This document shows positions 2 through 20,933 of a stretch of DNA of 20,933 nucleotides, piece after piece. A model generated the notes under the pieces. It saw nothing but the letters and a program-made list of their open reading frames with translations. It was not told the origin of the DNA and did not search any database. A program made the position numbers and the translations under genes. The stretch is taken from sequence record SRR22947727_2435, one strand, 5' to 3'. How positions within the stretch are numbered: the first letter of the stretch is position 1; the number at the start of each line of letters is the position of its first letter.

Positions 2-1785
<1,784 letters not shown>

Positions 1786-19422: not shown

Positions 19423-20307
19423 CTAGAACAGGGTCATGCCCAACAGCGAGTCGAACATGTCTCGCGCCCTGAGCTTTTCGGCCTTCGTCGCCGAGGATCC
19501 CGCAGTGGACGCCAGGCTCCGCGCCGCAGAGACCGCGTGGTGGGCCTTCAACATAATGACGTCGTCCTCCGTCATCTCACGGTCATAACCCGAGAGGAAG
19601 GCGACGCGGAGCTGAGGATCAGTTCTCCAGTAGTCCTGTTCCAGCAGGAACACATCGACTATCCACGGATCGTATTCCGCCATGGCGAAGTCGATGAGTC
19701 GGACATGGCCTCCGGGATCCACCATCCAGTTCCTGGGGTGGTTATCCCTATGCGCTGGGACGAGGGTCAACGAGGACAGGTCCATGGCCCGGGCGATGAG
19801 GAGTCTGGCTTCTGAGAGCAACGAGGATGCCACCACTCCCTCGAGTGAACCCGCCGCTTCTTCAAAGCGCGCAGCACATTGCCTCGCGAATTGATCTGAC
19901 ACCACGGGCTGCGATGACTCATGCAGACGACGGATGAGAGCGCCCGCCTTGTAGTGAACTAGGGGGTCCCACTCATTCGCCGTTCCTGCGGCTGGCTCAC
20001 CCTGGATCTCGCTGAGGAGGAGCATCTTCAAGCTCTCGTCGTTATCGATGAGTCTGGGTGCGTCTGAGCCAAGGGCTGGGGTGTAGTGGGTAAGAGCATC
20101 CCACTCGCGTTGATAGTCCGTTTGGTCTCGGTACCACTTGACGAAGGATGAGTCACCAGAACGTGTGACAACTTTCAAGACCTTGCCCACCGTCGGACGA
20201 AGAGATTGGTCATCGGCAACGTCGACAGGACCGAGAACTCGATGAACCCGATCCAGCACCTCCGCATCGGAGGCAAGACCGGCTCGACAGAGAACAGTCT
20301 CACGCAT
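19423..20307 (-). CDS. Aminoglycoside-phosphotransferase/choline-kinase-like (APH family) protein
   Basis: FVKWY (ATP lysine), Brenner motif HRDNHPRNW, LIDF; GGGAGG RBS. Confidence 0.85.
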   Translation of the reverse strand: MRETVLCRAGLASDAEVLDRVHRVLGPVDVADDQSLRPTVGKVLKVVTRSGDSSFVKWYRDQTDYQREWDALTHYTPALGSDAPRLIDNDESLKMLLLSEIQGEPAAGTANEWDPLVHYKAGALIRRLHESSQPVVSDQFARQCAARFEEAAGSLEGVVASSLLSEARLLIARAMDLSSLTLVPAHRDNHPRNWMVDPGGHVRLIDFAMAEYDPWIVDVFLLEQDYWRTDPQLRVAFLSGYDREMTEDDVIMLKAHHAVSAARSLASTAGSSATKAEKLRARDMFDSLLGMTLF

Positions 20308-20334
20308 GGCGCCTCCCGTGGGTTAGTGGCAATG

Positions 20335-20373
20335 AAAAACCCCCGCCCACACTCATTGTGGTCAGGGGCTTTT
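20335..20373 (-). terminator. Intrinsic terminator downstream of the 25-aa peptide gene
   Basis: Minus strand AAAA-GCCCCTGACCACA-ATGAG-TGTGGGCGGGGGT-TTTT: GC-rich stem (one mismatch, G-U pairs) plus a U-tract. Confidence 0.8.
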
Positions 20374-20387
20374 ACAAGCTCATAGGA

Positions 20388-20465
20388 CTACTGGCAGCTG
20401 TCACACTGGAGCAGATCCATGGGATCTACCGGTACTGCGTAGCCTCCAACGTTGTCTTCGTTCAT
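20388..20465 (-). CDS. Unannotated 25-aa acidic peptide with C-terminal CxxCQ (MNEDNVGGYAVPVDPMDLLQCDSCQ)
   Basis: Manual translation from ATG (20465) to TAG (20388). SD TAAGGAGG 5 nt upstream, own promoter upstream and terminator downstream. Confidence 0.85.
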   Translation of the reverse strand: MNEDNVGGYAVPVDPMDLLQCDSCQ

Positions 20466-20506
20466 GGTGGCCTCCTTACTTTTTCGGCGGTTAATGCCGG
20501 AGCACC

Positions 20507-20536
20507 ACTATATACCCCTAATGACAGTGGTGTCAT
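20507..20536 (-). promoter_or_regulatory. sigma70/SigA-type promoter ATGACA-N18-TATAGT for the peptide gene
   Basis: -35 at 20531-20536 (5/6 to TTGACA); -10 at 20507-20512 (5/6 to TATAAT). Confidence 0.7.
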
Positions 20537-20537
20537 T

Positions 20538-20553
20538 ACCCCATATCTTGTGG
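20538..20553. promoter_or_regulatory. NrdR box (ACCCCATATCTTGTGG), with a degenerate partner at 20505-20520
   Basis: Matches all strongly conserved positions of acaCwAtATaTwGtgt. The partner CCACTATATAccccta matches the left half, lies 33 bp away and covers the -10. Confidence 0.65.
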
Positions 20554-20629
20554 TTTCGGCGTGTCGAATAATCCTGGATGCGCGGTTGAGCATCGCCGCG
20601 CGACATTCCTGTTCAAAAACAGCGGAATT

Positions 20630-20933
20630 CACGTGGTAGGCGGCAGAGAATACGAACCTGAGAGAAACACGAAACAGTTTTAGTCCTCGCTCGAGAAACG
20701 TGTGTTCGAGAACATTATCGTCGTAGAGCAACTTCACAAGCCCACCTTGAGCCAGCAAACAAAAATCTAGTAGCGCAAAATGAGGCCCGGAATCAACATC
20801 TTTGCGACACCCCCAATCTGGCCCGAATAGATTTGCTCCACAGAGATGTTTTGATCCGAGGACCCATAATCGACGACCACGGCTCGAGTCAGGCGATTTT
20901 GGGTAACCGCCAAGTCATTGGCCAGGCAAAGAT
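20630..20933 (-). pseudogene. Frameshifted/degraded GT2-family glycosyltransferase remnant
   Basis: One frame gives ...AVVVDYGSSD... then TAG at 20767-20769. The -1 frame gives ...DSGPHFALLDFCLLAQGGLVKLLYDDNVLEHTFLERGLKLF...FVFS. Together these resemble consecutive GT2 motifs. Left boundary approximate. Confidence 0.55.

Follow-up and report, generated by a model that had tools for sequence, protein, structure and literature searches.

The window, by which we mean the whole 20,933-nucleotide stretch of DNA analysed here (sequence record SRR22947727_2435), carries genes for asd, ask, recR, dnaX, glycosyltransferases, a LacI-type regulator, L10, L1, L11 and NusG, together with a two-component pair, an aminotransferase, MurB, HadB, HadA and an APH-family kinase. 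Rfam searches recovered just two tRNAs and the SRP RNA within the window and nothing at the locus discussed below, and a search for nrd genes across the whole window returned none, in line with a first-pass annotation made from the letters alone. On the minus strand, direct reading of the sequence gives a 25-codon open reading frame (ORF) closed by a TAG stop (20388..20465), with the translation MNEDNVGGYAVPVDPMDLLQCDSCQ; on the basis of homology to fused NrdA tails, this micro-ORF is annotated here as a putative unlinked copy of the C-terminal tail of NrdA, the alpha subunit of class I ribonucleotide reductase (RNR), an enzyme that produces the building blocks of DNA. Its ATG is preceded, across the 5-nt spacer CCACC, by the Shine–Dalgarno (SD) sequence TAAGGAGG (20471..20478, minus strand), just as the first reading had it, and AGGAGG-type SD sequences lie 5' of the other extracted copies as well. 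The peptide contains two cysteines and no lysine or arginine, as first described, and five acidic residues (one Glu and four Asp) in place of the six originally counted. No Pfam or NCBIfam family was found for the 25-residue peptide (the sole Pfam hit being a chance zinc-finger match, E = 0.28), and a search of it for the PF00268 (Ribonuc_red_sm) domain gave no match.

Downstream of the stop codon, folding identified an intrinsic-terminator-like hairpin, AAAAGCCCCUG.CCACA…UGUGG.CGGGGGUUUUU (20335..20373, minus strand), with 16 bp (11 + 5 pairs), UUUUU at the end of the 3' arm and a folding energy of −26.6 kcal/mol (z = −2.6; equal folding in 4 of 200 shuffles). The claim that the ORF has its own terminator is thus borne out by folding, though a simple terminator scan found none in the micro-ORF region. 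GC-rich hairpins follow most of the stand-alone copies in other genomes, as read by eye and uncounted. Beyond the hairpin lies the gene for the APH-family phosphotransferase (19423..20307, minus strand; PF01636, E = 1.4e−14). This kinase sits between the micro-ORF and hadA in the window lineage only. None of the 33 loci from other genera has it; there, hadA (at least 58% identity) directly follows the stand-alone gene in 23 of 33 cases, with one further weak match. A role as leader peptide for the downstream kinase was set aside, since a terminator lies in between and the kinase is missing from the 33 other-genus loci. Upstream of the promoter, positions 20566..20933 (~370 nt) contain short ORFs only; among these, a minus-strand frame of 98 codons (20462..20758) shares sequence with the promoter and with the beginning of the micro-ORF, and the window ends at 20933.

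A promoter scan of the region returned two promoter-like sites, against 0.5 ± 0.8 in shuffled sequence. The sigma-70-like promoter of the micro-ORF, already proposed in the first-pass annotation, consists of the −35-like hexamer ATGACA (20531..20536) and the −10-like hexamer TATAGT (20507..20512), both on the minus strand and separated by an 18-nt spacer, and matches at 10 of 12 positions. The −35-like hexamer lies within an inverted repeat, TAATGACA-N4-TGTCATTA (20519..20538, minus strand), that is kept in 33 stand-alone loci. Two NrdR-type boxes flank and overlap these elements. Box 1, CCACAAGATATGGGGT (20538..20553, minus strand), was recognised by consensus match, position weight matrix (PWM) and conservation, and box 2, with the half-site …TATATAGTGG (20505..20520, minus strand), by PWM and conservation; the latter contains the −10-like hexamer. 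Promoter alignment added a conserved upstream element, GACACGCCGAA (20555..20565, minus strand), which is common to nrdA promoters. In most of the stand-alone promoters read and in six of six nrdA promoters (among L036–L042), this element, as GACACGCC(GAA), adjoins box 1 on its upstream side; it might serve as an UP-like element or as a third site of recognition.

The published NrdR box consensus is acaCwAtATaTwGtg, and NrdR sites are described as two boxes placed on the same helical face, an integral number of turns apart (PMC4009431). Box 1 agrees with this consensus at 11–12 of 15 positions and ranks first among all 15-mers read from either strand of the window; box 2 is a half-site that agrees at just 9 of 15, and the two boxes start 33 nt apart. 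When a PWM was trained exclusively on nrdA-upstream box pairs from other genomes, its top match in the window was the micro-ORF promoter, at 27.6 bits against 9.5 bits for the next match (z = 6.9, 41,766 positions). The same layout, that is a box, the −35-like ATGACA inside the inverted repeat and a second box, recurs in all 33 of the stand-alone loci read. Here the family consensus of the near-palindromic box, ACACTACATGTAGTGG, reaches 13 of 15 positions of the published consensus, and the second box covers the TATATAGTG −10 region. Upstream of nrdA, the same box pair was present, 32–33 nt apart, at six of nine loci, and a single box scored above threshold at the other three. The nrdR gene itself (TIGR00244) was above cut-off in all five related genomes checked. 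The best reading of the shared box pair is that the peptide gene is co-regulated with nrdAB by NrdR, as a prediction from these motifs.

Close relatives of the locus were reached via the neighbouring kinase, which led to four syntenic loci, all from MAGs of Microbacteriaceae, one of which bears the name Pontimonas sp. The peptide was identical in three of these and 96% identical (one substitution) in the fourth, while the kinase was 83–98% identical; the DNA of these four closest loci is near-invariant from the boxes through the terminator. In a wider sample of 201 genomes from Microbacteriaceae, the family of the closest named MAG, the peptide was present in 94 (E ≤ 1.3e−8), after six weak matches (E 0.8–4.7) of 100 had been dropped. 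Because the ORF is kept both in syntenic loci and across the family, its presence is far beyond chance. Many of the genomes gave two to five matches to the peptide, and several gave three to five. The extracted copies (one locus, L048, left out) all have a start codon and an SD sequence and span 23–29 codons. In one genome, a third and more diverged copy, LMDDIETVGGYTIPLDPMDQLQCDSCQ, occurs without NrdR boxes (L068, G156:C1, nt 961..1044).

The first-pass annotation had called for the conservation of the cysteines and for signs of coding selection to be examined, and both came out clearly. An alignment of 36 copies has 12 invariant columns, namely Y, P, DPMD, L, Q, C, S, C and Q, and thus both cysteines are fixed in 36 of 36 copies. 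Among 31 stand-alone copies, in which the terminal C, S, C and Q are likewise invariant, pairwise comparison of the 19 core codons gave 2288 synonymous and 146 non-synonymous differences, with an AGC/TCC switch at a serine. Since change is mostly synonymous, selection acts on the protein, and the micro-ORF is under strong protein-level purifying selection. The sequences of the 5' UTR and terminator vary between genera; the SD sequence and ORF are kept.

A profile search of 1.84 billion representative proteins gave 448 matches at E ≤ 0.001, 61 of them at E ≤ 1e−10. The best 150 of the 448 were 24–151 residues long, with no fused forms among these, and the 21 matches that were read proved to be mostly the same micro-ORF with an over-long N-terminus, most ending exactly in C[DE]SCQ. 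Fused forms were found by a genome search together with a homologue search that used the C-terminal region of a fused NrdA. They reveal that the peptide core, VGGYAVPVDPMDLLQCDSCQ, has its homologue in the C-termini, read in frame, of full-length class I NrdA proteins from other actinobacterial families, where the fused-tail motif is …VGGVACPVDPMExLQCESCQ. In the genomes G528 (named Aeromicrobium erythreum) and G539 (Nocardioides sp.), NrdA continues in frame into …ACPIDPQERLQCESCQ with a GC3 of 0.92–0.98, and its C-termini read …DGSACPIDPQERLQCESCQ. A terminus of the form DPx[DE]..C[DE]SCQ was present in 120 of the 120 homologues listed, out of 1886 matches, and the listed fused homologues are named, by source, as Aeromicrobium, Nocardioides, Jiangella, Friedmanniella and Serinicoccus. 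In an order-level sample, 10 of 10 loci read from other families end in frame in …VVGGVACPVDPME[AR]LQCESCQ (GC3 0.82–0.96), which brings the fused loci read in total to 12, all 12 with the tail in frame. The matches to NrdA C-termini that the first-pass annotation had proposed looking for therefore exist, alongside the stand-alone homologues.

Split and fused NrdA proteins are 69–76% identical. The fused tails have a third cysteine 10 residues upstream, at a position where stand-alone peptides usually have Val. The linkers of both split and fused NrdA contain one or two R(R/K)GFG(G/A) repeats, which might have a role at the protein level, for instance in docking the tail or a redoxin. One protein of 756 residues, P0229, matches both PF02867 and PF00268 and has the NrdA tail motif at its end; this may be a true fusion or else a chimera that arose in assembly or gene calling. 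A further set of seeming fusions, open frames of 800–940 residues ending in the motif, was rejected as out-of-frame read-through in high-GC DNA (GC3 0.42–0.50), the true gene at these places being nrdA in another frame, with a GC3 of about 0.95. Judged by sequence, the peptide is a homologue of the class I NrdA C-terminal tail, encoded by a separate ORF and forming no covalent part of NrdA. From its homology to the fused tails, it can therefore be read as the detached last ~22 residues of NrdA. The ancestral state would then be an NrdA with a long Ala/Pro-rich linker followed by …VGGxACPVDPMExLQC(D/E)SCQ, as kept in Nocardioidaceae and other actinobacterial families.

The first-pass annotation had speculated that the peptide might serve an RNR lacking its own tail, and such a partner is found in the relatives. 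In those Microbacteriaceae with the ATP-cone enzyme, the operon runs from nrdA (ATP-cone, lgN and lgC domains) through a micro-ORF to nrdB (PF00268), and the tail-less NrdA stops inside the linker after the RRGFGG motif. No cysteine occurs in the 41–82 residues that follow the last barrel motif, TTYYLHMK, in any of 16 NrdA proteins (11/11 and 5/5) from peptide-bearing relatives. The nrdA stop and the start of the micro-ORF overlap or abut, as TGATG, GTGA, TAGTCATG or TGATCATG; in G028 the junction is TAAATG, with the micro-ORF in the same frame as nrdA. An SD-like GGAGG of the linked micro-ORF lies within the codons of the terminal RRGFGG of NrdA, the last repeat of the linker.

The tail has two kinds of gene: a micro-ORF that is translationally coupled to nrdA and lies before nrdB, and an unlinked gene that usually stands upstream of hadAB. 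The window copy is of the second kind. Stand-alone copies are 83–100% identical to the window peptide, and nrdA-linked copies about 64–82%; the latter mostly have CESCQ, and D or E at the first L of the LLQ motif. The linked micro-ORF is a paralogue of the window copy and shares its core and presumably its role, but it is translationally coupled to nrdA and less conserved, whereas the window copy is unlinked, has its own NrdR-box promoter, a strong SD sequence and a terminator, and represents a type that is the sole copy in some genomes. Both types occur together in G195, where the stand-alone peptide is 100% identical to that of the window, the operon consists of nrdA, a 27-codon micro-ORF and nrdB, and NrdA has no cysteine in its last 30 residues. 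In four single-copy genomes (G196, G013, G158 and G076), nrdB directly follows nrdA and the unlinked copy is the only one recovered with the peptide query (4/4). The tail-less NrdA is the only match to PF02867, the RNR barrel family, in G013, G076 and G158; G196 has a second. In this last genome, a second PF02867-type RNR catalytic gene, a 948-residue open frame, was observed beside the tail-less nrdA (G196:C1:15217–16824).

Across the 201 genomes, 92 had both the peptide and nrdA, two had the peptide only, none had nrdA only and 107 had neither, in counts uncorrected for shared ancestry; the 92 genomes may descend from one split event, in which case their independence is overstated by a Fisher p-value. 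For this comparison, nrdA was counted as present at an identity of at least 69% to the query (92 of 201 genomes), and the remaining genomes gave only a ~30%-identical NrdA match, which is taken to be a class Ib-type NrdE. The two peptide-only genomes are G001 and G193. The former is the closest named MAG and is incomplete; RNR genes were sought in it and none matched. The latter is a complete-size genome without an ATP-cone nrdA, and its diverged copy (L062, G193:C22, nt 1537..1629) ends in …PMDEMGCDSCQ, with the otherwise invariant LQ replaced by MG, and has no NrdR boxes; it may be a relic left after loss of the enzyme.

RNA libraries were consulted for evidence of expression. In 17 runs from 14 studies, 15–27% of the sampled words from an 801-nt stretch around the ORF were recovered. 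Contigs over the ORF were obtained in three of four runs (three studies), for example 20231..20479 and 20216..20489, and run X5 gave none. Other RNA contigs cross the promoter and terminator; they map no transcript ends and cannot exclude DNA in the libraries. Together, these data lend weak support to transcription of the micro-ORF region.

Among known systems, the nearest are the fused NrdA tails of Aeromicrobium, Nocardioides, Jiangella, Friedmanniella and Serinicoccus, which, like the peptide, present …VGG.A.PVDPM[DE].LQC[DE]SCQ, in their case at the extreme C-terminus, after an Ala/Pro-rich linker with RRGFG repeats and a catalytic body that shares the 69–76% identity with split NrdA given above. 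Their tail, with its third cysteine, is part of the alpha polypeptide, whereas the window peptide comes from a separate gene with its own promoter, away from nrdA. A precedent for redox cysteines on a second polypeptide is provided by NrdJa/NrdJb of Pseudomonas aeruginosa, where the catalytic polypeptide lacks them and NrdJb supplies them through thiol–disulfide exchange (PMC4520616). That system is class II (B12-dependent) and its genes are adjacent (PMC4520616), while the peptide gene here is unlinked and belongs to a class I system. NrdJb, moreover, folds into a zinc-binding, Cys-rich domain that has six cysteines (PMC5704485); the peptide is a disordered tail of 25 residues with two. The resemblance between the peptide and NrdJb is one of function only. 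The account of NrdJa/b terms it a unique split RNR in a free-living organism (PMC4520616).

Small CxxC dithiol carriers tied to RNR turnover, as is presumed for the peptide, also include NrdH, glutaredoxin and thioredoxin. These are folded thioredoxin-type domains of roughly 75–110 residues. The peptide is too short for a thioredoxin fold and matches no family, and it is presumed to be a substrate of such redoxins rather than their equivalent.

In class I enzymes, a Cys pair on the flexible C-terminal tail re-reduces the active site (PMC5704485, PMC9669993) and is recharged in turn by thioredoxin or glutaredoxin (PMC5704485, PMC9669993, PMC8403727); the redox motif described for class I is a CXXC that closes a disordered tail (PMC9669993). 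Because of this tail logic and the precedent of the split class II NrdJb, we propose a redox role in trans for the peptide. The Cys-x-x-Cys pair of the free peptide would be reduced by a thioredoxin- or glutaredoxin-type redoxin, and the reduced peptide would then enter the NrdA active site and re-reduce the disulfide formed in each turnover. A diffusible peptide would in this way take over, in trans, what the tethered tail does in ordinary class I enzymes. Docking would fall to the conserved front half, GGYAVPVDPMD. With NrdR boxes over both promoters, the NrdR repressor would switch peptide and enzyme on together, and a dedicated, strongly translated gene might compensate for the lost tether through a higher dosage of peptide. 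Homology, a tail-less partner, co-occurrence and shared boxes all support the original idea of a stand-alone RNR alpha C-terminal redox tail, and on these grounds we consider it probable that the micro-ORF encodes a detached NrdA C-terminal redox tail that re-reduces NrdA in trans and is co-regulated through NrdR. Counting against this, a free 25-mer loses the high local concentration that a tether provides, and an efficient shuttle is less obvious. The more specific idea that the peptide acts as a soluble dithiol co-substrate, made in excess from an NrdR-controlled gene and cycling between redoxin and NrdA, is tentative, with chances that we would place somewhat below even.

Several other explanations bear on the same observations. 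The stand-alone peptide might instead be a regulator or decoy that throttles RNR by rivalling the tail encoded in the operon, either at the NrdA active site or at the redoxin, in a manner resembling yeast Sml1, which is said to block active-site regeneration (PMC8403727). The existence of two kinds of copy with different conservation (83–100% versus about 64–82% identity to the window peptide) would fit such a role, as would a promoter that makes the dosage of the stand-alone copy independent of nrdA. However, the stand-alone gene is the sole copy in all four single-copy genomes, whose NrdA has no Cys tail; a pure inhibitor would leave the sole PF02867 RNR of three of these four without any tail, and the boxes common to both promoters predict co-induction with nrdAB rather than antagonism, which makes a decoy unlikely. 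We regard as quite improbable a peptide that binds metal (Zn or Fe) or aids RNR assembly, with the Cys pair as ligands, for example across a peptide dimer. Zinc is coordinated by the Cys-rich C-terminal domain of class II RNRs (PMC5704485), and the fused tails do have the third cysteine 10 residues upstream; yet the stand-alone peptides have two cysteines only, with the third position usually Val, no Pfam or NCBIfam domain matched the peptide, and the class I redox motif is described as just such a terminal CXXC on a disordered tail (PMC9669993).

The arrangement of the operon raises the separate question of recoding, in which a frameshift or read-through would rejoin the linked copy to NrdA and the stand-alone gene would be a leftover duplicate or a leader peptide. 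The linked ORF does start on the nrdA stop or at most 5 nt from it, in the same relative frame in most junctions and with the SD-like GGAGG just upstream. Against this, an ATG or GTG of its own opens each linked copy, the junction frame varies (in G028 it is in frame after TAA), no slippery heptamer was seen by eye in the junctions read, four genomes are without any linked copy, and the stand-alone gene shows strong purifying selection along with a dedicated terminator; recoding is very improbable on this evidence. Lastly, the near-invariance of the DNA from boxes to terminator in the closest four loci is what a non-coding locus would show, be it a small RNA or an NrdR-titrating site with an incidental ORF. 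Across genera, however, the 2288 synonymous against 146 non-synonymous differences, the fixed residues, and a kept SD sequence and ORF between a differing 5' UTR and terminator make this barely credible. The reading of the micro-ORF as a detached redox tail of NrdA remains the one that we prefer.

The first-pass annotation knew of no description of such a stand-alone gene. This holds for the literature: within full-text articles (supplements and subscription journals lying outside the search), no paper was found on a split class I tail or on the micro-gene. It does not hold for the databases, which contain the exact peptide sequence of the window, nameless. The 27-residue stand-alone form is labelled there as 'ribonucleotide-diphosphate reductase subunit beta' or as hypothetical, and the linked form of Clavibacter as 'Ribonucleotide reductase, alpha 2 subunit'. 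The 'subunit beta' label is, going by homology, a misnomer, as the 25 residues are homologous to the end of alpha; the 'alpha 2 subunit' label implies that at least one annotator therefore saw a split alpha. What seems to be new here is a class I split RNR with a 25-residue tail peptide, apparently duplicated to an unlinked gene with NrdR-type boxes.

In the RNR literature cited here, the class I Cys pair is treated as part of the enzyme, and the split RNR that is described is of class II. In Microbacteriaceae, a whole family seems to run its main, and sometimes its only detected, class I/II-type RNR with a 25-residue peptide as tail, often from an unlinked gene. This apparently essential micro-gene has been mishandled by gene finders and name transfer, being missed, over-extended or called 'subunit beta'. 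Its boxes would add a predicted non-enzyme gene to the NrdR regulon. The arrangement also offers a natural system for asking how an untethered tail finds both the active site and its redoxin, which is testable with synthetic peptide. If the trans role is true, a diffusible 25-residue carrier would, to our knowledge, count as one of the smallest protein redox shuttles to be genetically encoded, and the dosage of the peptide, separate from that of the enzyme, would be a new control point on dNTP synthesis.
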